In this document: positions 7,612 through 48,664 of the stretch, piece after piece
How positions within the stretch are numbered: the first letter of the stretch is position 1
Layout: every line of letters begins with the position of its first letter
From: Candidatus Bathyarchaeota archaeon
Lineage (GTDB): Archaea; Thermoproteota; Bathyarchaeia; Bathyarchaeales; Bathycorpusculaceae
Reading direction: 5' to 3'
DNA length: 64,000 nucleotides
Assembly (NCBI GenBank): GCA_963768425.1
Contig: CAVYHV010000028.1
Location: 38,911 to 102,910, forward strand
Made by a program: the position numbers and the translations under genes
Notes under the pieces: generated by a model
What the model saw: the letters and a program-made list of their open reading frames with translations, nothing else
What the model was told of the DNA's origin: nothing
Databases searched by the model: none

Positions 7612-7716
7612 TTAATTGAGGGGTTGTGTCCTGAGTTCTAATCTGATGTTGTAAACTACTACAGCTATTGAAGCGAAGATTGCTGCTATTGAGGCTATAT
7701 CAATTATTCCAAACAT
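7612..7716 (-). CDS. Single-TM microprotein, 34 aa (MFGIIDIASIAAIFASIAVVVYNIRLELRTQPLN)
   Basis: GGTGA SD, own TATA promoter, paralog of 14236..14331. Confidence 0.7.
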   Translation of the reverse strand: MFGIIDIASIAAIFASIAVVVYNIRLELRTQPLN

Positions 7717-7758
7717 ATTTTCACCATTTTATTTTATAAGTACATACTTGCTCAGCTG

Positions 7759-7788
7759 AATATAAATATGGTTGTGATTTGTTCATAA
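7759..7788 (-). promoter_or_regulatory. TTATGAAC box + 14 bp + TATA, copy 1
   Basis: TTATGAAC AAATCACAACCATA TTTATATT on the - strand. Confidence 0.8.
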
Positions 7789-7885
7789 TATTTCATAAAC
7801 ACTAAACAACCGTCTAAATCCCAACAGAAAATTTATATGGAATAACAACCATTATAACATCAACTAAAACAGAAGGAAAAATAAA

Positions 7886-8122
7886 ATGAAAGCCTACATA
7901 CTCCTAAGCACAAAACCCGGCACTTCACTGGAAGTCGTCCAAAGATTAAAAGAAAAAGTCAAAGAAACAATCACCGCAGACGCCATATTCGGCCGATACG
8001 ACGCAATAGTAATATTGGAAGCACCAGCACTCGAAGAAATAAACCAAGTTGTTTACAAAATAATCGAAAAAGACCCCAACGTCATCCGAACAGAAACATC
8101 CATCGTGCTATCACCAATGTAG
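7886..8122 (+). CDS. Stand-alone Lrp/AsnC ligand-binding (RAM) domain protein
   Basis: KAYILL...FGRYDAIV...RTETSIV; no HTH. Confidence 0.85.
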   Translation: MKAYILLSTKPGTSLEVVQRLKEKVKETITADAIFGRYDAIVILEAPALEEINQVVYKIIEKDPNVIRTETSIVLSPM

Positions 8123-8216
8123 AAGCTAGAATAGAAGACAACCAAAACCCAATTTTTTCTTTTTTAATTTAAAAGACTATTTCTAGAAAAAATGTTGATA
8201 ACAAAATTTGAGGTTT

Positions 8217-8513
8217 TCAGCTCCAGTTGTCCTGGAGGAGCTTGGCCATTTCTTCTGGACATTTTGGTCCTTTGTGTGCTTTAAGAACGATGGAGCTAAC
8301 GGTGCTTTTTACGCCTTTTATTTTCATGATTTTGTTTTTGAGGATATCACGGAATTCTTCGATGTCTGCTGCTGATACCAGGGTTACGATGTCGAATTCG
8401 CCTGTGACTTCGTACAGTTCTTCAAGATGTTCTAGTTGGGCAAGCGAGATTAAGACATTGTCCATTTCTGGGGATTCTACAAATATGTCCACGAATGCTA
8501 ATAGTTTTGGCAT
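8217..8513 (-). CDS. Stand-alone Lrp/AsnC ligand-binding (RAM) domain protein, HKGPKC subtype
   Basis: LYEVTGEFDIV...IKGVKSTVSSIV; probable start MPKLLAFVDIF. Confidence 0.85.
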   Translation of the reverse strand: MPKLLAFVDIFVESPEMDNVLISLAQLEHLEELYEVTGEFDIVTLVSAADIEEFRDILKNKIMKIKGVKSTVSSIVLKAHKGPKCPEEMAKLLQDNWS

Positions 8514-8679
8514 ATTGGTCGTCTTGCTTATCTGAACATGAGTTCGGATATTTATACTTTTCTCGCCATGCAGCACAATTACTTTCATCATTGCCCTACA
8601 ATTGCACAGCAAATCAACTTAATAGTTGGACAATGTTAAAAAAGCTGCCGCTAACATTCTTAGCACCAGCGAGCTGAAC

Positions 8680-9170
8680 TCAAAATAGTGCATCTAACCA
8701 TTTACCGGTGAAATTACTGTAAACAGAAGGATAATCTTTTATCAGCTGCAAATTAAGTCTGCAAAACGTTAACGTATGGGCTGCCAAAAATCCAAAATGT
8801 TCCCTGTTGATTCTGATTAACAATGTTTGTTAAAGAAGTCAGCAGAAATACCTGTTGCGTTGCTTATTCCTGGAATCTGCGAATAGGCATCTTGAAGCGT
8901 GATGTCTGGGTCTACGCCTGATGCGGATGGGATCTGAGGTTTCGTTTCTTGTATGGAAGAAAATGGGCAGAGTGAAGTTTTGCGCTATAAGGTTTGACCC
9001 GACTGTTTGCCCGTTAAGTTTAGCAAGGTCGCCGTTTGCTTGGTTGGGAAAGAAAGCTTGGCCTATGCCTGTGATTAGAAACGGGTAAAGTAGTCCGCAG
9101 ATCAGCAGCGAAACCAATGCTAATCCGATGATCGGTTTGAAGTTCCATTTTTCTTTTTGTTTTCAGTCAT
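8680..9170 (-). CDS. kdpC: K+-transporting ATPase subunit C (frameshifted)
   Basis: GLLYP...[11 protein letters not shown]...[10 protein letters not shown]; last gene of the kdp operon. Confidence 0.85.
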
Positions 9171-9181
9171 GTCATTTTCTC

Positions 9182-11308
9182 CTAAACATGAAATACTCCA
9201 TGCGAGAAGCAGGTCGATTAGTTTGATTCCGATGAATGGCACGATAACTCCGCCTACACCGTAGATTAAAGTGTTCTTGAGGAACAGCGTCATGGTGCTG
9301 GTTGGTTTGAAGGCGATGCCGCGCATAGCAAGCGGAATCAGAAGCGGAATGATTATTGCGTTAAAGATGAGAGCTGACAACACAGCGCTTTGCATAAGAC
9401 CCAAATGCAAGATGTTAAGGCTGCTCAGTTGTGGAATGGCGACTGCGAAGATAACTGGCATGATTGCGAAGTATTTTGACAGTCGTTGGCGATGCTGAAA
9501 GCTGTAACTGCGCCTCTGGTCATCAGCAGTTGTTTTCCCAACATGACAACGTCGATTATTTTTGCTGGGTTAGATTCCAAGTCAACCATGTTTGCGGCTT
9601 CTTTTGCTGCTTCAGTGCCAGAGTTCATTGCTAACCCAACATCTGCAGCTGAAAGTGCTGGCGCGTCGTTGGTTCCGTCGCCAATCATGGCTACGATTCT
9701 GTTTTCAGCCTGCTCTCTTTTAGCTATTTTATATTTGTCTTCAGGTTTAGCTTGAGCAACGTACTCGTCGATTCCAACTTCTGCAGCGATGCTTTTTGCA
9801 GTAAGCGGCTGGTCGCCAGTAATCATGACGGGGCGAATTCCCATGATTTTGAGCGCTTGAATCTTTTCTTTGATGCCTTCTTTAAGCACATCTTTAAGCC
9901 TGATTATTCCGATAGCTACGCCGTTTCGCATGATGGCTATGGGGGTTTCTCCAGCTGCAGAAATGCCTTCCACAACTAAATCATAGTTTTTGGGAACAGT
10001 AGTTGACAGTTTTTTGATTGATTCAGGAGCGCCTTTCATAATGTCAATTTCGGGTTCAAGCATGTCAGCTTCAGTTTCTTCCAGCTGCAATAGAGGCTTT
10101 TCTTCGAATTCGCATTCGCTCTCTTCCTGACTTGTCGCCTTTTGGCAGGGTGAGACCAGATGTGAGTTATTTTTACTCCGCTTGTTCGGGTGACAGCTGA
10201 GAAGGGGTATACTTCTGAGGTTGCAAGTGAGTTTAGTTCTTTTGGCACGAAGCCTTTTTCGTAGGCAAGTTTCAGTATGCTTCGTCCTTCAGGGGTGTCA
10301 TCGTGCCAAGAGGACAGGAACGCTGCTTCGCCGACATCTTCTTCCGTGTAGCCTTCAAACGCGAACGAACTCTATGGCTTGTCGGTTGCCCACGGTGATT
10401 GTGCCTGTCTTATCTAAGAGGACAACATCTGCGTCTCCTGCGGTTTCTATGGCTTTGCCTGATTTTGCGATGATTTTGCTTTTGTAGAGTCGGGACATGC
10501 CTGAGAGACCGATGGCTGGCAGCAGGGCGCCTATGGTTGTGGGAAGAAGGCAAACGTAGAGTGCAATGAGCACTGACAAGTCGGCTCCAAGGCCAAGCGT
10601 TACTGATGTGCCAAGCAATGCAACTATGATTATGGTGAATATGGCGGTTAAGCCGATGAGAACCATGGTTATGGCAACTTCGTTTGGAGTCTTTGGTCGC
10701 TTGGAGGATTCCACCATCTTTATCATTTGGTCGATGAAGGTTTCTCCAGGGTTAGTTGTAACCTTCGCCGTCAAAGTGTCGCTGGCAAGACGTGAACCTC
10801 CGATAAGCGAATCTCCAGGCGCCTTCCTGACAGGGGCTGATTCGCCTGTGACAAGCGACTCATCAACCATCGCAATTCCCTCGATAACATCAGCGTCTAA
10901 GGGAACAATGTCGCCTGCTTCAATGTGGACCAGGTCGTCTTTTCTAAGCTCAGTTGATTTCACAGTCACTATTTTTCTAGTCCATTCTTCAGTGATTATT
11001 TTCTTGCTGGGCACTTCTGTTTCCAGTTTTCCGAGGCTTCCAGCGGTGCTTTTTGCTTGTTGCTCTGCAAGCGCATCAGAGAGCGTGCTGAACCAGACTG
11101 TGATTAGGAGGATGACGGCGACTTCAATGTAGAAGATTTGCAGGCTGGGGCTAGCTACTGGCACGAATGCTTGTGGGACTATAGCCATCGCTGCGACGAT
11201 GAAGAATGTGATTTCAACGATGAACATCACTGGGTTTTTGAGCAGAGATTTAGGATTGAGGCGAACGACAGAGTCAACTAGCACTTTTCTGGAGAAGGCT
11301 GACCGCAT
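9182..11308 (-). CDS. kdpB: K+-transporting P-type ATPase subunit B (frameshifted)
   Basis: KNPVMF, TGESAP, DKTGT phosphorylation motif, [19 protein letters not shown]. Confidence 0.95.
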
Positions 11309-11353
11309 TCCAGTGGGCGCCGATTCTTTGCTTTCTCTGAATTCAACGGGTTT

Positions 11354-13022
11354 TCATTGGCCAAAGCCGTTCACCAATCCTTTGAAGAATGATGCTATTG
11401 GTCCAATTGCCAGGAACGGGAAGAACGTCAACACCACCAGTATGATGATGCTGGCAACCAAGACTATAGTGAATATCAGCGTGTCAGTTTTTAGACCCGA
11501 AGTTGTTCCGCCGCGTTTTCTGCCAATCATTGAACCTGAAAGCGCCAACAATATGGCTATGGGAGCATAGCGTCCAATGAGCATCACGATGGCGGTTGCT
11601 ATGTTGAAGAACGGCGTGTTTGCTGAGGCACCTAAGAAGTCTGAGCCGTTGTTGGCGGCGGCGCTGGTGAATTCATAGAGAATCTGCGTGTACCCGACAG
11701 AGTTTCCACTCACTCCTATCGCAGATACTGCACCTGACGCGTAGGCTACCACGGTAGGTATAAGTATGATGATTGGATGAATAAGAAACGCAATCATTAC
11801 AAGTTTAACGTCGCGTCCTGTGATTTTCATGCCTAAGTATTCAGGGGTTCTTCCCGACATGAAACCGACGATGAAGACTGTTATTATAATGTACATGACC
11901 ATGTACATCATGCCTACGCCTTTTCCGCCTGGAATTGACTGAATAAACATGCCCAAGAAACCCAGAAAGTATCGTCAGAGGATGGTTTCCCAGTAAAGCT
12001 GAGTTCAGCGAGCCTGTTGTAGCGGCGGTTGTTGTGACAGTATAGAAACTGGACATGAAGCCGCCGAACCGGACTTCAATGCCTGGAGCCACCAAGGGAA
12101 GGGCTGGAATGAACGCTATGACTAAGATTTACTCCGAAGAGAATGTAAGCGCCCCACAGAAGCGGTCTGGATTCGGTTTTTTTGCCAATCATTTGTCCGA
12201 AAACAAAGATTAACGCTGTGGGAAGCAGAAGCATAAGAGAAATCATGAGGATGTTGGTAATCGGCGAGGGATTCATGAAGGGGTAGGCAGCGTTTGCCCC
12301 GTAGTATCCGCCGCCGTTGGTGCCTATTTGCATGATGGAGTCAAGAGAAGCCACTGGCCCAACAAAAATTGTTTGCGCGGCGCCTTCTATGGTTTTTACT
12401 GTGGTGTAGCCGTTGAGGGTTTGGGGTACGCCTAAGGCGAGAAAGATTATTGCAGCTATAATGGCAGAGTGGCAGGAAAATTCTTGTTATGGATCTGGTG
12501 AAGTCAACGTAGAAGTTGCCCATGTCTTTGGAGCCAACGACCAATCCGCGGATAAATGCGATGCCCATGCAAAGTCCCGTTATTGCGGAGGTAACATTGA
12601 AGCCATTGCAGAACGCCCATTTGGCTAAGATATGAAAAAGCGGCTTCGCCACTATAATGCTGCAGATCCGTGTTTGTTGCAAACGAGACTACTTGCATGA
12701 AGGCAAGGTCAGGATGTATGCCGGGGAAACCCATGGGATTAAGCGGCAAATTGCCTTGGAAGACAAGGATCAGAAAGCCAATAACCATCATAACAACGTT
12801 TAGCAGCAAGCCTGCAAGGAAGTACTGTTTCCAACCCATCGTCTGCTCTGTGTTTACGCCTGTGATTTTGTAGATGAAGTTCTCGATTGGATTGAATATT
12901 TTGTCTAGACGGCTTGGTTTTCGCTTAAAGACTCCGGTGATGTAGGGCGCTATAAGCCAAGCTAAGAGTATTGTTACTCCAAGTATAAGGATAACTGACA
13001 GCGCTTGAACTGCATCGATCAA
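11354..13022 (-). CDS. kdpA: K+-transporting ATPase subunit A (frameshifted)
   Basis: [44 protein letters not shown] filter motifs. Confidence 0.95.
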
Positions 13023-13074
13023 TTAATCCGAAACTCCAAATAACATTTGTGTTCACTATGGCTCCTATCCCCAA

Positions 13075-13362
13075 CTAAGTGGTTGATGTAATGTTGGTTT
13101 TTTCTTGGCACCTTGGTCCTTTATGAGGCTGCAATATTATAGTGCTTATGGTGCTTTTTACGCCTTTAATTTTCATGATTTGCTTCTGCAGAATATCTCG
13201 AAATTCTTCAAGCGTTGAAGTGCAAACTAGGGTGACGATGTCGTATTCGCCTGCGACTTCGTAGACTTCTTCAATGTTGTTAAGCTTTGACAGAGCAGCT
13301 AATACATTGTCTATTTGTGTTGACTCGGCGAAGATGTTGACTGAAGCTAAGAAACGGCTCAT
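13075..13362 (-). CDS. Stand-alone Lrp/AsnC ligand-binding (RAM) domain protein, HKGPRC subtype
   Basis: VYEVAGEYDIV...IKGVKSTISTII; GGAGG SD; directly upstream of kdpA. Confidence 0.85.
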   Translation of the reverse strand: MSRFLASVNIFAESTQIDNVLAALSKLNNIEEVYEVAGEYDIVTLVCTSTLEEFRDILQKQIMKIKGVKSTISTIILQPHKGPRCQEKTNITSTT

Positions 13363-13445
13363 TTTAAGCCGCCTCCATCAACACAACAGAACACATTGAA
13401 ACACAATTTAAGTTGTAACATAATCATCGATTCCGAGGAGAGTTC

Positions 13446-13547
13446 TCATGGAACCTCTTTGAGGTTCTTTCCTATTTTGATAAAGAAGGCTGAAAAATAG
13501 ACTGCTTCTTTTGCACTATCAGAGATTTCTGATTTAGAGTATTGCAT
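13446..13547 (-). CDS. Putative 33-aa leader ORF (MQYSKSEISDSAKEAVYFSAFFIKIGKNLKEVP)
   Basis: First ORF after the kdp promoter; AGGAG upstream. Confidence 0.35.
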   Translation of the reverse strand: MQYSKSEISDSAKEAVYFSAFFIKIGKNLKEVP

Positions 13548-13592
13548 TTAGAGCCTTCTTTTTCTCCTTTTAACATAGGGTATGGAATCCAT

Positions 13593-13622
13593 TATTTAAG
13601 GTTGATTGTGATTTGTTCATAC
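13593..13622 (-). promoter_or_regulatory. (G)TATGAAC box + 14 bp + TATA, copy 2 (RAM-kdpABC promoter)
   Basis: GTATGAAC AAATCACAATCAAC CTTAAATA on the - strand. Confidence 0.8.
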
Positions 13623-14144
13623 TTTCTTAATAATGTCATGAACATTTTGTGAAAATAATTGAAAAAGTTAGAAAAAAAGCATAGACAAAAGGAACAAACT
13701 TGAAAGTTTATTGGTTGAGCTACCTAAATCACTGAACGAAAAACCGTCTTCACAGCACTTTGTTGCGCCATTTTCCAGCATTCAAGTAGTTTTTGGCGCG
13801 TTTGTTTAATGCATGCTCGTGCTGTTCCACTGATATACCAGTGGGTCAGCCATTTTGGCAAAGCACTGTCCAATCTAAAAGGGTCAGGAGGAGCCAGGCG
13901 TTTGTCCGGGCCAATTGGAACTATTAAGGTGGAATTAGTACACGTAAAGATGTTTCAAAGATTTTCTTAGGATGGCACTTCTTTTAGACACCATATTTGG
14001 AAGAGGAAACTTTACCTCCAATTCGCAAAGGCGATGTGTTTAAATCCAAGAAAGATGTCGACTACAGCACATGTCCAAACAAATCGCAATTTCTCAGCCA
14101 AACGTCTAAGTTTCTAATTTATCTCTGTCACAGCTTTTTTGTTT

Positions 14145-14184
14145 TTCATAAAAGTTATGAACGATTCACAATTACATTTATATA
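14145..14184 (+). promoter_or_regulatory. TTCATAA-N3-TTATGAA palindrome + 14 bp + TATA, copy 3
   Basis: TTCATAA AAG TTATGAAC GATTCACAATTACA TTTATATA. Confidence 0.8.
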
Positions 14185-14235
14185 GGATGCTCTATCAATA
14201 GAGATTGTTCAATAAAATTTAAATCAGGTGGAAAA

Positions 14236-14331
14236 ATGTTTGGATTATTAGATTTAGTCTGGACATGCGTAATATTAGGGTCAATTGCGACGATTGGCTA
14301 CCAGATTCGTTTACAGCTAAGAATAAAGTAA
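14236..14331 (+). CDS. Single-TM microprotein, 31 aa (MFGLLDLVWTCVILGSIATIGYQIRLQLRIK)
   Basis: AGGTGG SD, own promoter, paralog of 7612..7716. Confidence 0.7.
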   Translation: MFGLLDLVWTCVILGSIATIGYQIRLQLRIK

Positions 14332-14634
14332 CGCCGTAAAATTCACGCCTTTGTTTACACCTCCAATATTACCATTTTTTATTGAAAAGAGCCAAAATAT
14401 GCAATGCGAAGCAGCATAAAATAGCCAATCTTTATGGCAGTTCGAAATGTTTGTGTAAGCGATGGCAAGGCAATAGACCTCAAGGTCATAGGCCGTTTTA
14501 GGTTTTGCTATAGGAAGCGCGTTGTTTTGTCCTCTTTTCTTGCACGTAACTAATTTTTTGTTTGTTCAACAAAAACATCCGTCAATGGTATTTTGTACAC
14601 TAATTTACTGATTTAACCAAAATACTTACAGTTA

Positions 14635-14674
14635 TTCATAATTATTATGAACAAATCTTAACCAAGTTTATATT
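14635..14674 (+). promoter_or_regulatory. TTCATAA-N3-TTATGAA palindrome + 14 bp + TATA, copy 4
   Basis: TTCATAA TTA TTATGAAC AAATCTTAACCAAG TTTATATT. Confidence 0.8.
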
Positions 14675-14716
14675 TCCTAGATTTGCTATGTTGTACTAAA
14701 AGTTCGGTGTTACTAG

Positions 14717-14854
14717 ATGAAAAAGGAAATGGAATCTCCAAATGTGAAAAAGACAAGCAGAAAGCACGTCGCATTACTCGTTAAAAAAGGGAAAAAAGTA
14801 TTTCCCGCTATTTCCAGCTTGCCATTTAGAGGAGGGAAAATAGATACCTACTGA
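14717..14854 (+). CDS. Putative Lys-rich 45-aa ORF upstream of the APC permease
   Basis: MKKEMESPNVKKTSRKHVALLVKKGKKVFPAISSLPFRGGKIDTY; GGTG SD. Confidence 0.4.
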   Translation: MKKEMESPNVKKTSRKHVALLVKKGKKVFPAISSLPFRGGKIDTY

Positions 14855-14888
14855 CTCTACAGGTGAACAAACGCAGAAGTCCCCGGCA

Positions 14889-16452
14889 TTGAAAAAAACT
14901 CTCGGCCTCGGAGGCGTTACGATAAACGCCATGGCCTTGATTGCTCCAGGAGCATTCTTATGGCTCACTTTCCAGATAAACGCAGCCCAGACCTCGCCGG
15001 CTGGCGCTTCAACAGCTAACGACATATTTTTTGGCCTTACAATAGCATTAATTTTGGCGTTCCTAACTGCCGCTTCTTATTCGTGGCTAGCACAACGTTA
15101 CCCCGATGCTGGTCCTGGCAGTTCGTATTATTTTGCTCAAAGAGCCTTGCTAGACAACGGAGCCAGCAACACTTCGAGCTAGAAACGCCAAGTTCGGTGT
15201 CGGATGGATTTCTCACCTCTACTACTGGGTTTATCCAGGGGTCATGGTTGCAGCAATGTCTATCCTGCTTACATGGATTTTATCTGTACTAGGTTTCGGC
15301 GTTTCTCCATTAGGCGAAATAGCTATTGCCTGTGTATTTGCAGTCGTTACAGGTGCTATAGCGTACCGCGGGATTCAAGGATCAACGAAAACGAACCTTC
15401 TTCTCAACGTAGTTCAAATCGGGATGCTTGTCGTCATCACTGGAATGGCATTGGCATTCCGTCTTACGAACCCTCAACATGTAAGCTTCACTTTCACTAG
15501 CCTTGGCGGAATAGTTACACCTCACGATATCAGCTTCGTGCTATTTCAAGCAACCATCGCTATCTTAGTACTAGTCGGATTCGAATCCGCAACTGCTTAC
15601 ACCGGAGAAGCCAAAGATCCCAAGGTCGTTCCAAAAGCAATCATCTTGTCATTGATTATTCAAGGAGCCTTCGCGTATCTGTTCGAGTACTTCGGAGCTG
15701 AGGCATGGATGAACTCCAGCTACACCATAACTTCTGGCGGCAAGATTTATTCAGGATTTGGCGCTGCTGCGGTCTCAAGCGCTCCCATTGGTGATATGGT
15801 TCGCAACCTTGGGAACGTATTCCTCGGAGGCAACGGCTTCACACTAGAGTTAATAATAGCTGCAATCGTGGCCGCTGCAATATTAGGTACTACCCTCGCA
15901 TGCATGAACACTGGTGTTAGAGTAACCTACGCTATTAGCCGAGACACCGAAGTACCTTATCACCTTAGCAAGCTAAACCCAAAATACTCTACTCCAGCGA
16001 TCGGGATCTGGGTAATGACCGCCGTTGCAGCCGCCATAGGATCTTTCGGAGTACTGACGATAACAAACCTAACATCTATTACGTTGCTATCTAACTTTGG
16101 CACCTTCCTGCTTTACGGACTAACAAACATTGTCGCACTGATCGCCTTCACTAAAGAGAGAGCTTCAATACTAAAACGCAGAGTAATTCCAATCGCAGGC
16201 TTCGCTGCTAACGCAGTCATGATGGCCACTATTGTGTACCTCAGCTTTGCAGGCGGAGGGGCTTCAGCATCAGAAGGAATCTTTGCTATAGCTGGCACGG
16301 CAATATGGTTGGGAATAGGGTTAATCTATTTCCGGTTTAACTCAAAATCAAAGCCTTCCGGTTTGTTTCCGTTCCCAGGCAAAGATGAGGACGAAAGCGA
16401 GCCAACGAAGGCTGTCAAATCCAGAACCCTAATGTTCTGGAAAAAAGATTAA
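14889..16452 (+). CDS. APC-superfamily (amino acid/cation) permease, split near 15180
   Basis: LGL.G...NAMALIAPG, YPDAGPGSSYYFA, GFESAT..GEAKDP; about 12 TM. Confidence 0.88.
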
Positions 16453-16740
16453 ACCCCATTTTTCCCTTTTTTGTTATATAAGAAGAATAACAATGCTCAG
16501 CATTTCCAGATTATTGTTGTTCTTCTAAAAAAAGCATTCTTGAATAGAGATAGTGGAGATGCAATCGTATAGGAAATCGGCTTTTCACTCCCAACTTTAT
16601 CATTACGGCTGTTACAAACCGCTATTGACTATTTTAGACTCAACCTACAATCAATCCAAAACCCATTTCAAAAGAGCAAACAAAAACACAAAAAAACTGC
16701 CAGCTTACAAATTAGGGGTGCCCTCTGTTTCACTGTTTAC

Positions 16741-16851
16741 TTATTTTTTCCTTAAAATTCTTTTTCGAAAGATGCTGTGCGGTTGTCCTCGAGAGTCCAG
16801 AATAACTTGTTCTTCAACATCTCGTTTTGTCTCTTTGGTAACTTTCTTCAA
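16741..16851 (-). CDS. Putative basic 36-aa ORF (MKKVTKETKRDVEEQVILDSRGQPHSIFRKRILRKK)
   Basis: TTG start with GGTG SD, directly downstream of motif copy 5. Confidence 0.5.
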   Translation of the reverse strand: MKKVTKETKRDVEEQVILDSRGQPHSIFRKRILRKK

Positions 16852-16893
16852 TTGTAACACCAATTCAAGTTTAGCAATCAAGACGTTAAAACA

Positions 16894-16923
16894 AATATAA
16901 ACATAGTTAATATTTGTTCATAA
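16894..16923 (-). promoter_or_regulatory. TTATGAAC box + 14 bp + TATA, copy 5
   Basis: TTATGAAC AAATATTAACTATG TTTATATT on the - strand, preceded by CTCTTAA-AAG half-site. Confidence 0.8.
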
Positions 16924-17009
16924 CTTTTAAGAGAAATAAAAATTATTTTCAATAAAAACACTAAACTCTAAACATATCATAATATTTTTCGAAAACTCAA
17001 ATCCAAAGG

Positions 17010-17933
17010 CTAAAAGCGACCGAGCAACAACCCGATCGAAAAGCTCAACAGCGGAGCCAGCACCCAGCTTAACACAATAATAAGAAACGGCTTAGCAGAA
17101 ACGAGCTTGGACTTGTAAGATATCCCTGCACCGAAAACCGACGCAGAAAGCGCCTGTGTGTTAGACAGAGGAATCTTCAGCAGGGTAGCCGCCTCTACAA
17201 GAACCGTGGAAGTCAAAAGAGACACCGTCGCATTCGGGTACCTCATTAGAAAAAGCTCCTCTGAAACCCTACGAATCTCACCGGCACTCAAAAAGAAAGC
17301 ACCGATGAAAATTGCAATCACAGCTACTAAAACTAAAGGTAATGAAAACCCGCCTGTGGCGACTATTAAGCCAAGGGTGTTTGCCCCCAACACATACGAA
17401 GTAGAAAGCGCCAGAGCTATAAGGATAATCTTGTAGATCTGCAGTCTCCGCCAAAAATTCTTCGGTTTACTTCTATTGATGATTCGCAGCAGGTAAAACG
17501 AGAAGGCAATGGCAATCAGAGGAGCAGCAACCCACATAAACGCAACTTCAGCCACATACATGCCGCTACTAAAAGCGCCCTGTGCAACAGACAAGCCTGC
17601 AAGCATCCCGACGAGCGACATGCTAACAGACATTGGCGCCCTAATCAAGTCGGCGATAATAAAAATCAATGTGGCGACAAGCAAAGCTTCAGCTCGAAAC
17701 TGAACAGCGCCGCTTGGCAACAGCAGATTGACTGTTTTTGTCATTCCTGCTCCTTGGGCAATAAGTCCTAGGGAAAAACCAGCGGCGCCAAGCAACATCC
17801 CGAACCGTTTACTTATTATTCTAGAGCCCACAGCGGGACCGACGCATGCAGACAGGTTGTTGCCTGCAACTAGCATAACTGCAACAAAAGTTAAGAGGAC
17901 AACTGCCGTGGAGAGCCAAATCATCAGGGTCAC
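17010..17933 (-). CDS. pit: PiT-family inorganic phosphate transporter
   Basis: AGNNLSAC.G..VGS and GANTLG repeats, P.S.TQ motif; follows a DUF47 gene. Confidence 0.8.
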   Translation of the reverse strand: MTLMIWLSTAVVLLTFVAVMLVAGNNLSACVGPAVGSRIISKRFGMLLGAAGFSLGLIAQGAGMTKTVNLLLPSGAVQFRAEALLVATLIFIIADLIRAPMSVSMSLVGMLAGLSVAQGAFSSGMYVAEVAFMWVAAPLIAIAFSFYLLRIINRSKPKNFWRRLQIYKIILIALALSTSYVLGANTLGLIVATGGFSLPLVLVAVIAIFIGAFFLSAGEIRRVSEELFLMRYPNATVSLLTSTVLVEAATLLKIPLSNTQALSASVFGAGISYKSKLVSAKPFLIIVLSWVLAPLLSFSIGLLLGRF

Positions 17934-18612
17934 TTAAGGATTGACGTAACCACAGACACAATCAGAGAGGAAAAGTCTGAGCAGTCGTTTAAGATGTCTT
18001 CGCAATTGTGTAGCATTTTTTCGTAGTGGTAAAATTCCAGGTAATTCAGCTGCGGTGTTATGGCATACAGCCTGTCGAACCCTTGGTCCTTGATGTCGTC
18101 TCCCTGCTCCTCTAAGGTTTGTATATCCTTATGTAGCGTGGAAATCTCTGCCATATCCGAAGAGAGGAGCGCCAGCTTGAGCTTTGCAAGCGATTTTTCT
18201 ACAAGTCCAAGCATGATATCATAAACAGAATTCCAGTCGGCATGGTGCATTTCAAGCCCAGCGGAATATGCTACTGCCATTCTATCAGCTCACGGCTAAT
18301 GTGAAGACATGTGTGAACAACATCGCCGATTAACGCGGCGCATTTAAGCAGGCTGTCGATGACGTTGGGGCTGACTGCGCCTCCTGTGATGTCTTCGCTG
18401 ACTTTGAAGCCAACTTCACTGGCTTTCTTCTGCAGCGTCTGGACTGCGCGCATGGATTCAGTCAGCTGGCTATTCGTAGGATCCATTTTGAACATTCTTC
18501 CCAGAAGCGCGTTAGCCTCAGTCGCTATGTCAACTATCTGAGATAGCTCGCCAAAAATATTTTTTTCGCCAACAACCAAGATACCCTTGAGACTCTTCAA
18601 CCGAAACGCCAC
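17930..18612 (-). CDS. DUF47/PhoU-like Pit accessory protein (frameshifted)
   Basis: IQTLEEQGDDIK...EDILN helical-bundle pattern; upstream of pit. Confidence 0.75.
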
Positions 18613-18724
18613 TCCCTTAAAACAATGAAAGCTTAAGCAATATTAAACTTTACAAATTTCGACAATCCCCAAAAACGCGACCTAAGGTAAAGGCAATAGG
18701 AGACGAGTAAAATCAGATTTAACG

Positions 18725-19165
18725 CTATATCACTTTACTATATTCCTTCACGGCGTTGAGTGCCACCAGCGTGGTGGTTCTCTTGATGAATTTTTCAGTT
18801 AAGAGTTTCTTTAAGAAGGCGTTTAGGGTGGGGTTGTCTTGGAACTTCGCGAAGACGACCGCGTCGTATTCCCCAGTTATGTCGTAAACGGAGAGTACGT
18901 TGCCTTCTTTGGCTATTTGGTCTTCAACTTCTCGAATATGTCCGCCTTCGATTTGGATCATGATTATGGCAGTTAGAGCGTACCCCATTTTTGCAGAGTC
19001 AACGATGGGAATGTACCCAAGTATCACTCCTTTCTGCTCAAGGGCTTGCAGGTGATTATGGAGAATGTTTGGGGTTACACCTACTTTTTGAGCTAACTTG
19101 CGTAGGCTTAGACGTGAATCGTCTTCCAATGTGCGTATTATTTGCATATCGAGAGTGTCTGACAT
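18725..19165 (-). CDS. Full-length Lrp/AsnC transcriptional regulator
   Basis: DTLDMQIIRTLEDDSRLSLRKLA HTH plus YDITGEYD ligand domain; probable start MSDTLD. Confidence 0.9.
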   Translation of the reverse strand: MSDTLDMQIIRTLEDDSRLSLRKLAQKVGVTPNILHNHLQALEQKGVILGYIPIVDSAKMGYALTAIIMIQIEGGHIREVEDQIAKEGNVLSVYDITGEYDAVVFAKFQDNPTLNAFLKKLLTEKFIKRTTTLVALNAVKEYSKVI

Positions 19166-19532
19166 GTTTGTTGGGCTTTTTTTGGGTTTTAAGCCCAAAT
19201 TTCTCACGCCCCGTTGGTTTGCTTGACGTTTGTTTAGTAAATCAAGGAATATATAAACATCACCGCACGGAAATTGAAACAATGTAAACATTGTTGGAGT
19301 TTCAAGAGTGTCAAGTAGACAATCGATGTATGGACGTTTAACGAATGTACAATACTCAGTATAAACCTCTGTGCCGGTTAGACGAAGAGGTAACTCATGA
19401 TGGCCCACAGAGGAGGGGCTGAACAGCAGCGTACTGTTAGGTTATTTGTCATAAGCGCCCAAATCTTGAAATAAGCATAAAGCTTCAGGCGAAAACGAAG
19501 GGGGATTAAATTTTGGGCAACGCTCTTCACGA

Positions 19533-23660: not shown

Positions 23661-23829
23661 GGGGTCGTAGTCCAGCCAGGCTAAGACGGCGGGCTCCAGA
23701 AAGCAAGCAAAGGGTTTGCTGACCGAAAGGGATGACGAATCTCTGGAGCGGTCTTAGAGAAACCCGCAAAGATGAACATAGCGTCGTCTTGGGTAAAGGT
23801 CGTCGGTTCAAATCCGGCCGGCCCCACCA
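23661..23829 (+). tRNA. trnW: tRNA-Trp(CCA) with two introns (23700-23761 at 37/38; 23768-23796 at 43/44), CCA end encoded
   Basis: Acceptor GGGGTCG/CGGCCCC, anticodon arm GCGGG-CTCCAGA-CCCGC after splicing, T-arm GTCGG-TTCAAAT-CCGGC, BHB-like pairings. Confidence 0.92.
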
Positions 23830-37133: not shown

Positions 37134-38068
37134 ATGTCATTTTTTCAAGTGACAGTGTTCATGGGCGAACTCGAATGCAATGGATTAACGAAGGTTTACG
37201 AAGATCACCGCAAAGCATTGGAAAACGTAACTTTTTCAGTGGAAACCAACGGCATTTTCGGGTTAATCGGCAGAAATGGAGCGGGAAAAACAACTCTTAT
37301 CCGAATTTTCGCCACTGAACTTCAGCCAACCGCCGGAACTGCAAGCATCAACGGGTTTGACATTCTAAAGCAGGAGAGGGAAGTTGAGGGAGAAAATCGC
37401 GATTGTCCCGCAGGAAGCCCGAACTATAAGATGGATGACGGCTAAACAGACTGTTATGTCGTATCTTCTTTGGCGAGGCTACAGCTACGGTGACGCAAAA
37501 AGGCTTGCGGATGAGTCGCTTGCAAAACTTGACCTGCAAGAGTACGCAAACGTTTTAACCAGTCGCCTTTCAGGTGGCACAAAAAGAAAAGTTCTTATCG
37601 CGACGGTGATGGCGTCTGAGGCAGAAGTTATTTTTCTTGATGAACCCACAACAGGTTTAGACCCGATTTCACGAAGGGAACTGTGGGAAATTCTAAGGAA
37701 ACTTGGCAAAGAACGATTCATTTTTCTAACAACACATTATCTTGGAAGAGGCGGAGGAACTGGCGGACAAAATCGGCATTCTAAAAGATGGACAATTGGT
37801 TTCAGTCGGCACCCTTTCAGAGATTAGAAAAGCCTCAAAGTACCAGTACAGCATTAAATTGCCTCTCAACGCGCCGATTCCACGACTTAACAGACGGTGA
37901 AGTAACCACAGAAACACATGGGTACACTCAGATAATGACGAACGAAAACGAAGCGTTCCGTCTTAGCCAAGCTGCTTTCTGAGCAAGGGACTAAGGTTTT
38001 CAATCAACCCGGTGACTTTAGACGACATATTTTTCCTTCTTGTCGGTCAAAAAGCGAGGGATGAATAA
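37134..38068 (+). CDS. ABC-2 exporter ATP-binding subunit (frameshifted)
   Basis: GRNGAGKTT, LSGGTKRK, FLDEPTTGLDP, TTHY. Confidence 0.9.
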
Positions 38069-42269: not shown

Positions 42270-43167
42270 TTTGTCATCATTCAACTTCTCTACTCCATCC
42301 TTGCTGCTATTGAGTTTCTTCCTAAGACAAACTTAACGAAAAGATTCAGTCCAAGCATTATAAGTACAAGAACCAAAGCTGCTCCCCAAGCCTGCAGTGA
42401 TCCAGATTTGTAGGGAGATAGAGCGTAATTGTAAATGAGAACCGTCAGTGAACCTGTTGGCTGCGTAAGAGGCTTGTTGCAAAATAGTGCTGGTCGCTGC
42501 AGTAAATAATAATGGAGCCGTTTCTCCTGTTGCGCGTGAAATAGCTAATACAATGCCAGTTAAAAGCCCGTTTTTCCCTGTGCTTATAACGATTCTAAAC
42601 ATGGTTTTCCATCTTGGAACGCCAAGAGCCATTGAGGCTTCTCTTAAGGTTGTTGGGACAAGTTTAAGAGATTCATCTGTTGTCCTCGCGATTATGGGTA
42701 ATCATTATAAAACTTAAAGCAACTCCGCCGGCAAAAGCAGAAAAATGCTTCGTGGTTAAGACAAGTATAATGAAAACGAAGAGCCCCATAACCATTGTCG
42801 GAAACCCAGTTAATACATCATTCATAAAACCTGAAACTGTTGATAAGCTTCGATGTGGACCATTCTGAAAAGAAGATGCCTGCCCCAACACCGATTGGTA
42901 CAGAGATAAGGGCGGCTATACCCACCATCGTAACAGATCCTACTATTGCGTTGGCAATTCCTCCGCCTGGAAATGTCTGGTGCGGTAGGTAAGTGAGTCA
43001 GGAAGGCGATGTTGATGGCTGGTGCTCCTCGAACTGATACGTCTCCTAATATGAGAATCAAGAGGCACGACTGCGAGAACTACTGCGACGAGGATTAAAA
43101 TTGTCATAGACTTGTTAACGATTTTTCGCCGAAGCGAAATACTCGAGGGCAATCAGATTTTGTCCAT
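42270..43167 (-). CDS. pstA: Phosphate ABC transporter permease PstA (several frameshifts; ends approximate)
   Basis: ALGVPRWKT...LAISRATGETAPLLFT. Confidence 0.88.
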
Positions 43168-43179
43168 GACTGTTTCATC

Positions 43180-44119
43180 TCCTCAAGCTTTAACCTGCTG
43201 ATCCGCGACTCATCCTCCAAAGCAGAAAGTCGGGCAAAAACATTAATTATTAAAGCGACAACAAACAGAATCAATGCAATCTCAATTATTGACGATCGAA
43301 AAAGCCCTTGGGCTTCGCCAAATTCATTCGCTATCAGGGAAGCTAAAGTGTATCCCGCCTGAAAACAGATTTGCAGAAATCTTAGGGGTGTTTCCGATTA
43401 CCATGGTCACAGCCATTGTTTCGCCAACGGCGCGTCCTAAGCCCAGAACGAAGGCACCAAATATTCCTGACCTGGCATATGGCAGGACACTTTTCTGTGT
43501 AACTTCCCAGTCTGTTGCGCCAAGCGAGTACATAGCTTCTCGCTGACTATTTGGAACAGCATTTAAGACATCCCTTGAAACTGCAGACATCGTCGGAATA
43601 ATCATTATCGCTAACATGATTCCAGCGGTAAAAAAACTCGTTTGCGAGAGGATGTACCCGCGAATAAGGGAAAGACTCCAAGTGAGTATGTCAAAGGCAT
43701 CTCAACATATTTCTGTAAAAGGGGATTAGAACAACTAACCCCCAAAGACCATAAACGACACTGGGCACAGCTGCCAGAAGATCAACCAATATTCCCAAGC
43801 GCGTAACCAGTTTTCGATGAGCTTTTAGCTTTTCCGTGATAAAGATAGCTACTCCCAGACTAATTGGAAGCCCAATCAGGATAGCAATAGCAGACGTCAA
43901 CAAAGTTCCATAAATAAAAGGCAAAGCACCAAATAGTTCATGATCTGGGTCCCATTTTGTCCCAACCAAGAAACTTGGCCCGAATTGGATATTGAAGCAG
44001 CTGACCCGATAAAGAGTCCTAAAGCAAGAGCAACAAGAAGACCAATAATAAAAAAGGCTGCTGCTGCAAGACCTATTTTTACAATTGTATCTCCTCTTAC
44101 CAGTGTGATTTCACTTCAT
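43180..44119 (-). CDS. pstC: Phosphate ABC transporter permease PstC (several frameshifts; ends approximate)
   Basis: WDP...FGALPFIYGT, LAAVPSVVYGLWG, LGLGRAVGETMAV. Confidence 0.9.
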
Positions 44120-44175
44120 CGCTTCTTTTTCTTGATTAGTATAAAAAAAAGAGATAGATTGCTTTTAAGTTTAGC

Positions 44176-45456
44176 TTAGAGCGGTATTTGGGTTCCGTTG
44201 TAAGTAATCAGCGCAATTGTTGCGGTGTCGATGGTGACTATGTTAGCTGGCAATGGAGCGTAGCCTAAGGTTGTGCTGTATGATTGTCCTTGGTTAATGA
44301 CCCATGTGAAGAAGCTGACGACAGCGGCGCCTTGTTGTAATTGGATTGTGCTTCATAGACTAAACCGTAAGTTAGGGTAACAATTGGGTAGATACCTGTG
44401 TCGGTTTTATCGTTGTAGGTGTTGTCAATGATAGAGACACTTGACCAAAATGCGTTTCCTGCTGGAAGCATACCTGCTCCGGCTGCCAAGGTTGCTCCTA
44501 TATTTGACACGTTGGCTGAGGATGAAGTTGCCTGCAGCGTTTTCAACGGTTCCGTAGGAGATTTGGCCAGGATTTTCAATTCATAAGCGATTTCAAGCGG
44601 ACCAGCGCGCCAGTGTTTTCACCAATGTCCTGCGCAACACCGCCGTTTCCCTTATAGCCTGTACCAACTGGCCAGATGGAAGCTTGTACTTTCCAAGCGG
44701 TGTTCCAAGCTGTACTTGCGTCAGACAAGAAATCGGTGAAGGCAAACATTGTTCCGCTTGAGTCAGATCTGTGGATACGGTTATTGCGGTAGATTGGTAA
44801 TAGCAGCTACATCTGGGCTTTGCAACGCTATTATAGCGGGTCGTTCCAATTGGTTATGGTTCCTAAAAAGATGTTTGCTAGGACTGTCCGGTGAAGTTGA
44901 GACTTTGCATGTTGGACCGTTGAGAAGTTTTAGATTGTAAGCTGGCACAACTGCGCTGGCGGATAATGGTATTGTTAAGGCAGTTGGGCCAGCAGGAAGT
45001 CTGCGATGTCTGCTGTTTGAAGTGGCGCGTCCGATTCGCCGAAATTGTTGACTCCGCCTTGAAAATCAGTGATTCCTGCACCGCTTCCAACGGCATTGTA
45101 GTTTACTTCGACTTTTGGTTGATACTGATTGTAAGCTACTTGCCAATCTGCCATTAGAGGGGCGACAAGTGTACCTCCAGACCCCAGTAATCTGGGTCGA
45201 TGGCGCTGTTGTTGGACGGGAGTTGGAGAAGGAGTTGGAGTGGGAGAAGCGGTTGGCGTTGCGGTTGGTTTAGCTGTTGGGTTGGCTGTCGGGGATGCGG
45301 TGGGAGATGCAGTTGGGTAAGTGTTGCGGTTGGCGTTGGACTTGGAGTTGGGCTCGTCTTAGATGAATTTGAAGATAGATATGTGTAAGCGAATACGCTG
45401 CCTATAATGATAACGATAACTACTACTGCAATGGCTATCATGTATGTAGTTTTCAT
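44176..45456 (-). CDS. pstS: Phosphate-binding protein PstS (heavily frameshifted)
   Basis: N-terminal TM plus PT linker; HRSDSSGT and YPIVTLTY fragments; heads pstCAB. Confidence 0.8.
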
Positions 45457-45520
45457 TTTTTTACCTCTATTTTACAATCGACAATGTAGATTCTGTTGTT
45501 ATATCGATTCCCAACATAAT

Positions 45521-47584: not shown

Positions 47585-47848
47585 TTGACGCATCTTCACG
47601 CGTTCGTTGATGTTTTTGTTGAAGCCCAACTGATGGATGAAGTAGTTGAAGCGCTCTCCAAGATGGATAACGTTGAAGAGCTTCATGAGGTAACAGGAGA
47701 ATTTGACATAGTAGCCCTTGTATCAGCCGCCGATATTGAACAATTCCGGGACATTCTAAAAAACAAGATCATGAAAATTAACGGAGTAAAAGGCACAGTC
47801 ACATCAATGGTTTTGCAAGCTCATAAAGGACTCAAATGCAGGGATTAG
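47585..47848 (+). CDS. Stand-alone Lrp/AsnC ligand-binding (RAM) domain protein, HKGLKC subtype
   Basis: Close paralog of 8217..8513 (EVTGEFDIV.LVSAADIE.FRDILKNKIMKI.GVK). Confidence 0.88.
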   Translation: MTHLHAFVDVFVEAQLMDEVVEALSKMDNVEELHEVTGEFDIVALVSAADIEQFRDILKNKIMKINGVKGTVTSMVLQAHKGLKCRD

Positions 47849-47937
47849 CTTTTTTGAAATTTTGCAAGAACAGAAATCATGAACTTGATTTTGAGAGAAC
47901 AAAAAAGGATTGCTAATTGATGACATTCTTTTTTATT

Positions 47938-48405
47938 CTATTTTCCAGATTGCATGTTATCTTCCTGGAGGATTTGTTGGGTTCTGGTTTCGATGAATGA
48001 TACTATTTTGGTTTCGGCGAACTCTTTGTTTTCTTCTTGCAGGATAAGCAGCTCACGGATTTTTTTCAATAGTTCTTCAACGGCAACTGGTTTTACCAAA
48101 AAGGCGTCGGCGTGCTGATTGACTGCTTCTATAGCGTTGTTCATTGAAGGGTAGCCTGTGAGCATTATTTTGGCCATTTTCGGTGTCGTTTCTTTAAGTT
48201 GAGTAATCAGTATTGTTCCATCTACATCTGGTAAACGCCAATCTACGATCGCAAGGTTGTAGAAGTTGGCATAGCTCTTTTCAACGGCTTCTTTTCCATT
48301 CTCAGCGGTGTCAACAATGTAGCCTTCTTCTTGAAGTACAATTGACAATGTTTGACGAATGTTTTTGTCGTCATCTATTAGGAGGATTCTGGCGGTATCT
48401 GTCAT
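47938..48405 (-). CDS. Stand-alone response regulator receiver protein
   Basis: ILLIDDD, IVDWRLPD, LTGY, LVKP. Confidence 0.9.
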   Translation of the reverse strand: MTDTARILLIDDDKNIRQTLSIVLQEEGYIVDTAENGKEAVEKSYANFYNLAIVDWRLPDVDGTILITQLKETTPKMAKIMLTGYPSMNNAIEAVNQHADAFLVKPVAVEELLKKIRELLILQEENKEFAETKIVSFIETRTQQILQEDNMQSGK

Positions 48406-48664
48406 GATTAAACCTTCAAATGAAAATGGCGTGATCAATATATATTCTGTATGAAGCCAAACTACAGACTTAAAATACACAATTCACCGGAACGTCCTTG
48501 GAAAAAGGATTAAACCTAATGTGATCTCCTCTTGTCCAGATTGGGCCTGATCATGTAAACTTGAAAATCATCAATTAGAACCAAGTTGTACGCTTAAGCA
48601 ACAACAAAACTATTTTAGTGAAAAATCAGTCTTGCATCTTAGCTTATTGTGGAGGTGAAATTTT

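Follow-up and report, generated by a model that had tools for sequence, protein, structure and literature searches.

The stretch analyzed here, 64,000 nucleotides of a Candidatus Bathyarchaeota archaeon contig (CAVYHV010000028.1, assembly GCA_963768425.1, positions 38,911 to 102,910; hereafter the window), contains a cluster of genes around a kdp operon in which kdpA, kdpB, and kdpC are bracketed by genes for two stand-alone RAM (Lrp/AsnC ligand-binding) proteins, RAM1 and RAM2. Next to the operon lie a third gene of this kind (RAM3), genes for two short hydrophobic peptides (pepA and pepB), a gene for an APC-superfamily permease (APC2), conserved small open reading frames (ORFs), and, at the cluster edge, a unit of Lrp, DUF47, and PitA genes (Table 1). 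Five intergenic promoters of this cluster share one element, in which a TATGAAC box ends exactly 14 bp before the TATA box. Box and spacing are conserved across about 40 related species, and because a box 14 bases before TATA marks cluster genes both in these species and in the window, one shared regulator very probably docks there.

The composite pattern TATGAAC-N14-YTTAWAT matches the 64-kb window exactly five times against 0.01 expected, a number that none of 100 dinucleotide shuffles reached, and all five sites lie at the positions and on the strands reported in an initial annotation made from the sequence alone. The bare 7-mer TATGAAC is not enriched (eight copies against 7.5 expected in the window), so the signal of the element lies in clustering, intergenic position, and fixed spacing: five of the eight copies are grouped inside 9.3 kb, all of them intergenic and at a fixed distance from a TATA box. 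The rest of the window, ~54.7 kb, holds no site by the composite pattern. Alignment of the five regions limits their likeness to ~45 bp, from a distal arm through the TATA box. The palindrome TTCATAA-N3-TTATGAA, which the initial annotation had described as perfect in two copies and nearly so in a third, is perfect at 14145-14161 and 14635-14651 and carries two mismatches at 16917-16933. At 7782-7798 there are three mismatches, and the distal arm is a direct repeat, TTATGAA. Site 2, the promoter of the kdp operon, is the weakest copy in the window, with a position weight matrix (PWM) score of 30.6 compared with 52.6-58.5 for the other four sites.

Table 1. Features of the kdp cluster, with coordinates in the window. 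Exact matches are to TATGAAC-N14-YTTAWAT.
Feature	Coordinates	Strand	Exact match	Description
Site 1	7759..7800	-	7760-7787	Box TTATGAAC, 14-bp spacer, TATA TTTATATT; direct-repeat distal arm at 7792-7798; in the divergent region between pepA and RAM3; PWM score 58.5
Site 2	13593..13622	-	13594-13621	Box GTATGAAC, 14-bp spacer, TATA CTTAAATA; promoter of RAM1-kdpABC-RAM2
Site 3	14145..14184	+	14156-14183	Perfect palindrome TTCATAA-AAG-TTATGAA(C), 14-bp spacer, TATA; promoter of pepB
Site 4	14635..14674	+	14646-14673	Perfect palindrome TTCATAA-TTA-TTATGAA(C), 14-bp spacer, TATA; promoter of the 45-codon ORF and APC2
Site 5	16894..16933	-	16895-16922	Near-palindrome, distal arm CTCTTAA, box TTATGAAC, 14-bp spacer, TATA; small ORF only
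pepA	7612..7716	-		34-aa single-helix hydrophobic peptide MFGIIDIAS...; behind site 1
RAM3	7886..8122	+		78-aa stand-alone RAM protein, divergent from site 1; PF01037, 38.2 bits (cutoff 25)
RAM2	8217..8513	-		Intact 98-aa stand-alone RAM protein; 3' end of kdp operon
kdpC, kdpB, kdpA	8680..13022	-		At least 10 ORF fragments; Pfam pieces KdpA, E1-E2_ATPase, Hydrolase, KdpC
RAM1	13075..13362	-		Intact 95-aa stand-alone RAM protein; first gene of kdp operon
kdp leader	13363..13592	-		230 nt, two hairpins; conserved 33-codon upstream ORF at 13449-13547 (MQYSKSEISD...)
pepB	14236..14331	+		31-aa hydrophobic peptide MFGLLDLVW..., paralogue of pepA; behind site 3
Upstream ORF of APC2	14717..14854	+		Conserved 45-codon ORF, MKKEMESPNVKK...; protein-level conservation in L007, L023, L024, L027, L032
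APC2	14889..16452	+		APC-superfamily permease, PF13520; two ORFs, one frameshift near 15182-15244
Small ORF behind site 5	16741..16881	-		Conserved, 36-46 codons, ...EEQVILDSRGQPHSIFRKRI...
Lrp-DUF47-PitA unit	17010..19291	-		PitA 17010-17933; DUF47 split at ~18275; Lrp 18725-19291, or to 19165 from an inner Met

RAM1 has 599 relatives, the best 120 of which are 73-100% identical. A scan of reference genomes with RAM1 as query gave 52 loci with 10-kb flanks (denoted by L and a number), nearly all of them titled as Bathyarchaeota or Bathyarchaeia metagenome-assembled genomes (MAGs), with RAM1 identities of up to 87% and none identical to the window. Forty of the 52 loci contain the composite motif, in one to five copies whose positions recur from locus to locus. 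With a PWM built from the 103 exact sites and a site threshold of at least 14, the 52 loci and the window hold 134 sites (103 exact and 31 PWM variants), and no score of 5 or more was obtained in mononucleotide shuffles of 30 of the 53 sequences (537 kb). The spacing is equally sharp: 204 copies of TATGAAC occur in 974 kb, 107 of them have a TATA-like box within 60 nt, and 103 of these 107 have it at exactly 14 bp, the other four at 4, 24, 36, and 42 bp, respectively. Three loci that share the gene order, have RAM1 identities of 63-83%, and carry an archaeal-type box bear the titles Limnocylindrales bacterium, Methanomassiliicoccales, and Nanoarchaeia (L001, L014, and L040, respectively); they are probably mis-binned contigs.

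A regulatory element of this cluster should, as the initial annotation had argued, be rare before unrelated promoters and present at the kdp loci of relatives, and both were observed in the DNA surveyed. No box lies within 36 nt of the TATA box in any of 41 other promoters from the same DNA, and the 11 loci without kdp (179 kb) contain a single site, while at least one site is found in 39 of the 42 sequences with kdpA (41 loci and the window). The kdp promoter itself could be examined wherever a sequence includes the 5' end of kdpA, in 40 loci and the window (41 in total). The pattern places the box at 14 bp in 27 of these and the PWM in three more (L022, L024, and L032, with TATGAAG or TATGTGC); six have it at 24 bp and two at 13 or 17 bp (L025 and L019). 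The 24-bp promoters (L006, L011, L015, L016, L017, and L047, ~285-330 nt upstream of RAM1; also L028 at 5401) arose via a 10-bp duplication of the spacer, ATCACAAYYA, which is about one helical turn, and this rule of 14 or 24 bp argues for a protein fixed to one helix face. Across relatives the kdp copy is again the weakest and most variable, reading TGTGAAC or TATGTAC in many species. No kdp box was found in three of the 41 sequences: L013, where only ~224 nt of upstream sequence is present, L030, a Nitrososphaerales record, and L037. Both L030 (a Nitrososphaerales MAG) and L037 (an 'uncultured archaeon' MAG) encode one or more RAM proteins together with kdpABC. The RAM-kdp pairing thus extends beyond the operator, and, more speculatively, RAM control of Kdp could be older and more widespread as well.

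The sites recur within a conserved gene map: Lrp > DUF47 > PitA; (site) small ORF - APC1; (site) glnA > asnB; (site) upstream ORF - RAM1 > kdpA > kdpB > kdpC > RAM2; <RAM3 (site) pepA. In the sub-lineage to which the window belongs, the order is instead (site) small ORF, followed by <APC2 (site) and pepB (site). When sites were assigned to genes from 30-420 nt upstream on the same strand, one was found for all 27 genes of the permease APC1, all eight of APC2, eight of nine glnA genes (the exception is L042), 33 of 51 RAM1-type genes, one of ten asnB genes, and the single p108 gene. No upstream site was assigned to Lrp (0/13), PitA (0/21), DUF47 (0/20), TatC (0/4), or receiver genes (0/5), none on the same strand to RAM3 (0/34), and likewise none to the remaining gene classes tallied. 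The glnA product is a type I glutamine synthetase (L002:5403-6869, 575.4 bits against a TIGR00653 cutoff of 429.15), and asnB, which is often downstream of glnA, scores 857.6 bits against a cutoff of 499. L042, from the same MAG as L011, carries a second glnA copy, 81% identical, that follows two RAM-only genes and has no box.

Orthologues of the window sites sit at matching places in relatives. Those of site 1 are found in 30 relatives, where the peptide ATG lies 43 nt after the end of the TATA box (44 only in L010), and all listed pepA orthologues have a GGTG Shine-Dalgarno sequence before the start codon, a placement that fits a working promoter. The order <RAM3 (site) pepA is kept in most related loci. 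Site 3 has eight or nine orthologues, depending on the count, and the orthologues of site 5 are promoters of the small ORF and APC1. The box also precedes extra RAM-only paralogues (L032, L035, and L038), pepC of a third peptide family, and genes for membrane proteins of 41-46 and 169 aa. By position and conservation, the predicted targets are RAM1-kdpABC-RAM2, glnA (often with asnB downstream), two APC permeases, each preceded by a translated small ORF, extra stand-alone RAM genes, and several families of membrane peptides of 31-45 aa. A mobile repeat or miniature inverted-repeat transposable element was considered and rejected, as the copies lie at orthologous promoter positions and have only the ~45-bp control region in common.

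The consensus of the element is (G)TTCATAA-W3-TTATGAAC-AAATCAYAACYA-NN-TTTATAT, with a near-invariant T(T)ATGAAC that ends exactly 14 bp before TATA. The box usually forms the right arm of an imperfect inverted repeat with an AT center; the distal arm is inverted (TTCATAA with at most one mismatch) in 66 of 134 sites. Further elements, resembling half-sites, are specific to target classes. Of 28 kdp promoters, 19 carry GTYCA at -20, and 27 of 33 APC1 promoters have TGRAC at +33, a place that falls between the TATA box and the expected start; in site 5 of the window this element is degenerate. The spacers also differ by class across glnA, kdp, permeases, and peptides. An A at -3 is general, being found in 68% of control promoters.

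The genes named downstream of these promoters in the initial annotation are correctly identified; kdpA, kdpB, kdpC, and the APC permease, however, are split by frameshifts in the window. The window kdp operon differs from the intact operon of L008 by 22 gaps over 4.4 kb. Of these, 19 are one-base indels, the others being a +2/-1 pair that offset each other and a deletion of 9 bases, and most lie outside homopolymers. APC2 and DUF47 (17930-18612) have one frameshift each, and an ABC ATPase gene (37134-37827) and pstA/pstC (~42.3-45.5 kb, about 42300-45470) are also fragmented, while the RAM genes, PitA, TatC, Lrp, and ORFs of 691, 498, 420, and 397 aa are intact. In-frame pieces of the split genes show no excess divergence; those of KdpA are 70-96% similar to relatives, the same as intact orthologues among themselves. 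In relatives kdpA, kdpB, and kdpC are mostly intact (552-554, 724-726, and 155-161 aa, with L002 KdpB scoring 771.6 bits against a TIGR01497 cutoff of 527.9), and seven related assemblies (L004, L014, L017, L027, L028, L035, and L047) are similarly fragmented across many genes. The indels of the window kdpABC, about 21 in all, may reflect recent decay of the transporter genes or patchy indel errors of assembly.

RAM1, RAM2, and RAM3 match PF01037 with 55.2, 58.6, and 38.2 bits (cutoff 25) and have no helix-turn-helix domain by Pfam. The solved structures nearest to RAM1 are the stand-alone RAM proteins 2djw, 2zbc, and 2cvi/2e1a, and the RAM domain of FL11. A second RAM-only gene location, with an 87-aa product beside a receiver-domain gene and no box, is found at 47585-48480 of the window; in L002 the same pair (RAM4 and its receiver gene) adjoins TatC next to the kdp cluster.

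The leader of the kdp operon is 76-335 nt long in relatives and contains a conserved upstream ORF of 31-33 codons (MQYPESEISD...). It can form a long-range GAAGGC/GCCTTC pairing and a GAACC...GGTTC hairpin, with a consensus fold of -4.71 kcal/mol and compensatory changes in two of 16 pairs, a weak covariation. A riboswitch or other structured RNA was rejected, given the weak support for the leader fold and a search of the window at Rfam gathering thresholds that returned only a tRNA. This tRNA, at 23661-23826 on the forward strand, spans 166 nt, scores 32.8 bits against a gathering score of 29, and was missed by ARAGORN; it is probably an intron-containing archaeal tRNA.

Several of the genes behind the box encode small proteins that lack annotation. 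At least four families of unannotated single-helix membrane peptides of 31-46 aa stand behind the box and flank kdp, among them pepC (L029:4503-4637, reverse strand) and a peptide at L027:15926-16051, and in L035 a co-directional gene for a type II P-type ATPase immediately follows one of them. The 18 aligned orthologues of pepA have a mean column identity of 69%. Seven small ORFs, including pepA, pepB, and the APC-linked ORFs, match no Pfam family at E values up to 10, and neither KdpF nor any other Pfam model matches pepA, pepB, or pepC. In most loci the gap between RAM1 and kdpA is too short for a small ORF. A co-fold of KdpA with pepA, modeled for a KdpF-like role, scored 0.00 and, having been run without controls, bears neither way on binding. 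The small ORF before APC1 (...NIEELIxLDARGQPHSIFQKRI...) shows third-position wobble, gaps in multiples of three, and a GGTG Shine-Dalgarno sequence, and in relatives its stop codon abuts the APC1 start (TAAATG; e.g., L002:3100-3234). APC1 is missing from the window, L007, L021, L023, L024, and L032, and the small ORF is kept in all of these. Neither sequence nor profile comparison found solved relatives of the APC permeases, whose NCBIfam matches fall far below the cutoffs; an AlphaFold model based on 30 close sequences reached a pLDDT of only 50.5, and the automatic names in the source records are 'amino acid transporter' or 'APA family'. No glnA gene occurs within the cluster of the window.

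The regulator expected from bacterial systems is not encoded nearby. In agreement with the initial annotation, a Pfam scan of 92 window ORFs found no KdpD, histidine-kinase, or OmpR-type DNA-binding domains, only proteins consisting of a stand-alone receiver, and no domains of KdpD/KdpE type were found among 104 ORFs of L002, L007, L010, L032, L035, and L018. The Lrp gene that the initial annotation had placed at 18725-19165 does encode a full-length Lrp with HTH_24 and AsnC_trans_reg domains. The unit of Lrp, DUF47, and PitA adjoins the cluster in 23 of 42 kdpA sequences (22 loci and the window), and nine more of the 42 have a lone Lrp-like match, several of these at 39-50% identity or on the other side. 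The best NCBIfam match of the window Lrp is a haloarchaeal Lrp at 126 bits, and as this is below the cutoff of 190 it is not an equivalog; the solved structures nearest to the cluster Lrp are 8q90 and then FL11.

According to passages of PMC2995911, archaeal Lrp dimers bind imperfect inverted repeats of 13-17 bp with an AT-rich center, their target regions contain several sites phased by helical turns, and Ptr2, LysM, and Ss-LrpB bind at a highly constrained position just upstream of the TFB recognition element (BRE) and act on the TATA-binding protein (TBP). The geometry of the present element fits these published activator sites upstream of BRE/TATA, as the initial annotation had anticipated. 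The same passages describe Lrp-type proteins as DNA-wrapping dual regulators and report a hetero-octamer of FL11 with the stand-alone RAM protein DM1. In passages on other archaea, the lrp gene of H. salinarum adjoins glnA and induces glnA along with phosphate and peptide transport genes (PMC2894021), and Sa-Lrp binds the control regions of glnA-1, -2, and -3, gltB, and gdhA, with glutamine as cofactor (PMC3584215).

On balance we lean, with reserve, toward reading the element as the putative operator of one shared transcription factor over a compact Bathyarchaeia gene cluster, and propose an Lrp-type activator or dual regulator for this role. A dimeric or higher-order helix-turn-helix regulator would bind on one helix face, ~7 bp upstream of the BRE position, and would most likely belong to the Lrp/AsnC family, the full-length Lrp at the cluster edge being a candidate. 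Like Ptr2, LysM, and Ss-LrpB, it would help TBP and TFB onto promoters whose BRE positions depart from the local norm, and these atypical positions fit dependence on an activator. The stand-alone RAM proteins, being predicted targets themselves, could serve as ligand-sensing partners in mixed oligomers and so provide feedback. As the signal, amino-acid or nitrogen status, perhaps combined with cation status, would be more likely than K+ alone.

Several observations weigh against this assignment. None of 13 Lrp genes has the box upstream, and a scan for the palindrome alone also found none; Lrp autoregulation was accordingly rejected, the extra matches of that scan being mostly the same palindromes on the other strand. 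L010 has the box and a ribbon-helix-helix (RHH) protein in place of the syntenic Lrp, and four further box-bearing loci (L029, L033, L036, and L041) have only an Lrp of 39-43% identity on the other side. Neighborhood and operator type are what would link any protein to the box. The distal arm departs from the textbook Lrp palindrome in part of the sites: it is a direct repeat in 39 of 134, including 27 of the 30 pepA sites, and takes neither orientation in another 29, mostly kdp sites. The TGRAC element at +33 would be as compatible with repression or a dual role as with activation. The contrast at BRE positions, where the spacer is AA at -7/-6 from TATA in all regulon promoters and G in 46% and 61% of controls, is drawn from 41 loosely defined control promoters. 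Column identities across the 134 sites (0.96 for the box, 0.95 for TATA, and 0.50-0.59 for the flanks) are partly circular, because the sites were selected by motif. The survey, finally, covers ~20 kb around kdp and, of one complete 3.05-Mb chromosome (OY970340.1), four loci (81 kb).

Some of these observations would be met by a regulator of another family, encoded elsewhere (e.g., an RHH, ArsR/TrmB-like, or HTH_10 protein) and acting through the same operator, with Lrp serving only DUF47-PitA. Lrp is co-directional with DUF47-PitA and lacks a box of its own, some box loci lack this Lrp and have RHH or HTH_10 genes nearby, and the direct repeats of the pepA class (27 of 30 sites) are unusual for Lrp. 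We regard this as a tentative alternative worth keeping in view, but a 17-bp AT-centered inverted repeat just upstream of BRE matches the Lrp-type activators described in PMC2995911, RAM-only relatives of Lrp are the most frequent regulatory genes of the regulon, and RHH and HTH_10 genes occur in only two loci each. Somewhat less probable is a factor acting mainly as a repressor or dual regulator, wrapping the promoter by way of phased sites on either side of TATA. The TGRAC and GTYCA elements of the APC1 and kdp promoters would suit such wrapping, as would the DNA-wrapping, dual character ascribed to Lrp-type proteins in PMC2995911; the downstream element, however, is class-specific and degenerate in site 5, the BRE positions are off the local norm, and the invariant element lies upstream of BRE, where the archaeal activators in that source bind. 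That an alternative TFB or TBP paralogue recognizes the whole as an extended core promoter, with no regulator involved, seems highly improbable. The invariant AA at -7/-6, the A at -3 in BRE territory, and the rigid TATA spacing would be in keeping with it, yet the box ends 14 bp upstream of TATA, past the usual BRE position, forms an inverted repeat with the distal arm in about half of the sites (66/134), and tolerates an exact 10-bp shift, which fits a separate protein on one helix face. Mere shared ancestry of duplicated promoters, maintained by no selection, is scarcely credible: pepA/pepB and APC1/APC2 are paralogues whose promoters were probably duplicated along with them, but box and spacing are kept over about 40 species-level genomes, with column identity dropping to 0.50-0.59 in the flanks, and both are kept across the non-paralogous glnA, kdp, permease, and peptide genes, whose spacers differ by class.

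A further rival concerns the signal. The initial annotation had cast the promoters as a low-K+ regulon independent of KdpDE. On such a reading, a factor sensing K+ limitation would activate Kdp together with a KimA-like K+ importer of the APC family and peptides resembling KdpF. One shared operator, its conservation at kdp loci, and the lack of a nearby KdpDE all stand, but exclusivity for K+ is not supported as stated, as glnA, in places asnB, and the APC permeases are co-marked. A dedicated regulon of this kind we consider unlikely. The kdp operon does anchor the cluster, with a box in 39 of 42 kdpA sequences, no KdpD/KdpE was found in the window or the five fully annotated loci, small hydrophobic peptides behind the same box lie on both sides of kdp, and the permeases, with no solved or curated close relative, would leave room for a K+ substrate. 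Against it, the same box precedes eight of nine glnA genes and in places asnB, the APC family is named for amino-acid or polyamine transport (though the names are automatic), the peptides match no KdpF model, and RAM domains are described as sensors of amino acids and metabolites in PMC2995911. Because glnA, in places asnB, and the permeases share the box and the kdp copy is the weakest, the element suggests a mixed nitrogen, amino-acid, and cation module rather than a purely low-K+ regulon. A bolder version, which we offer as doubtful speculation, would have Kdp wired into nitrogen assimilation: one Lrp/RAM sensor responding to amino-acid or nitrogen status would induce glnA-asnB, the permeases, the peptides, and Kdp together, with Kdp acting as an ATP-driven NH4+ scavenger or supplying K+ as counter-ion for glutamate and glutamine pools, and the RAM proteins of the operon replacing KdpDE as ligand sensors.

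The initial annotation had not recognized the operator, and a literature search likewise returned no description of the TTATGAAC box (the ten papers listed, of 655 containing its string, are unrelated), of kdp control in Bathyarchaeota, of a link between Lrp and kdpFABC in archaea, or of gene regulation in Bathyarchaeia; the passages of PMC5767755 and PMC7603488 that concern kdp mention only its presence or absence. What the analysis provides is a sharply defined operator with rigid geometry and a clear target set, and a kdp operon under putative control other than KdpDE together with glutamine synthetase. It also points to operon-embedded RAM-only proteins, membrane peptides of 31-45 aa, and ORFs of ~40 codons as parts of the module. 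In the Bathyarchaeia, an abundant, uncultured group, this system could be approached culture-free, with recombinant proteins and synthetic promoters.

In bacteria, kdpFABC is under dedicated control by KdpD/KdpE from a site upstream of the promoter. The present system is similar in its putative dedicated control of a kdp operon from an upstream site, but here the promoter is an archaeal TATA/BRE promoter, RAM genes bracket kdp, glnA and permeases are co-marked, and KdpD/KdpE were not found.

Other parallels exist among archaeal Lrp systems. The sites of Ptr2 (M. jannaschii) and of LysM and Ss-LrpB (Sulfolobus), as described in passages of PMC2995911, resemble the element in being imperfect AT-centered inverted repeats of 13-17 bp at a constrained position upstream of BRE/TATA. 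Helical-turn phasing of extra sites, also described there, is only partly seen here, where the extras are class-specific; moreover, the sequence is new, one target class has a direct-repeat distal arm, kdp is among the predicted targets, and the candidate binder is indicated by synteny and analogy. The circuits of H. salinarum Lrp (PMC2894021) and Sa-Lrp (PMC3584215) share with the present one an Lrp gene near nitrogen-assimilation genes, glnA as a target, and the involvement of phosphate or peptide transport. Whereas Sa-Lrp sites are given in PMC3584215 as AT-rich, bipartite, and of low specificity, the box here is sharp, and kdp, a predicted target here, is not among the Lrp targets reported in the relevant passages of the two sources.

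The Pyrococcus feast/famine regulatory proteins FL11 and DM1, in the account given in part of PMC2995911, likewise combine a full-length Lrp with RAM-only paralogues of 75-100 aa, and DM1 (2cvi/2e1a), STS042 (2zbc), and the RAM domain of FL11 are among the structural matches of RAM1. Here, by comparison, hetero-oligomers are predicted, and each locus has three to five RAM-only genes in or around a transporter operon that are themselves predicted targets of the box. Set beside these systems, the element is of a known kind with three unusual features: the joint marking of kdp and glnA, the RAM-only genes that bracket the pump operon, and the many unannotated small proteins.

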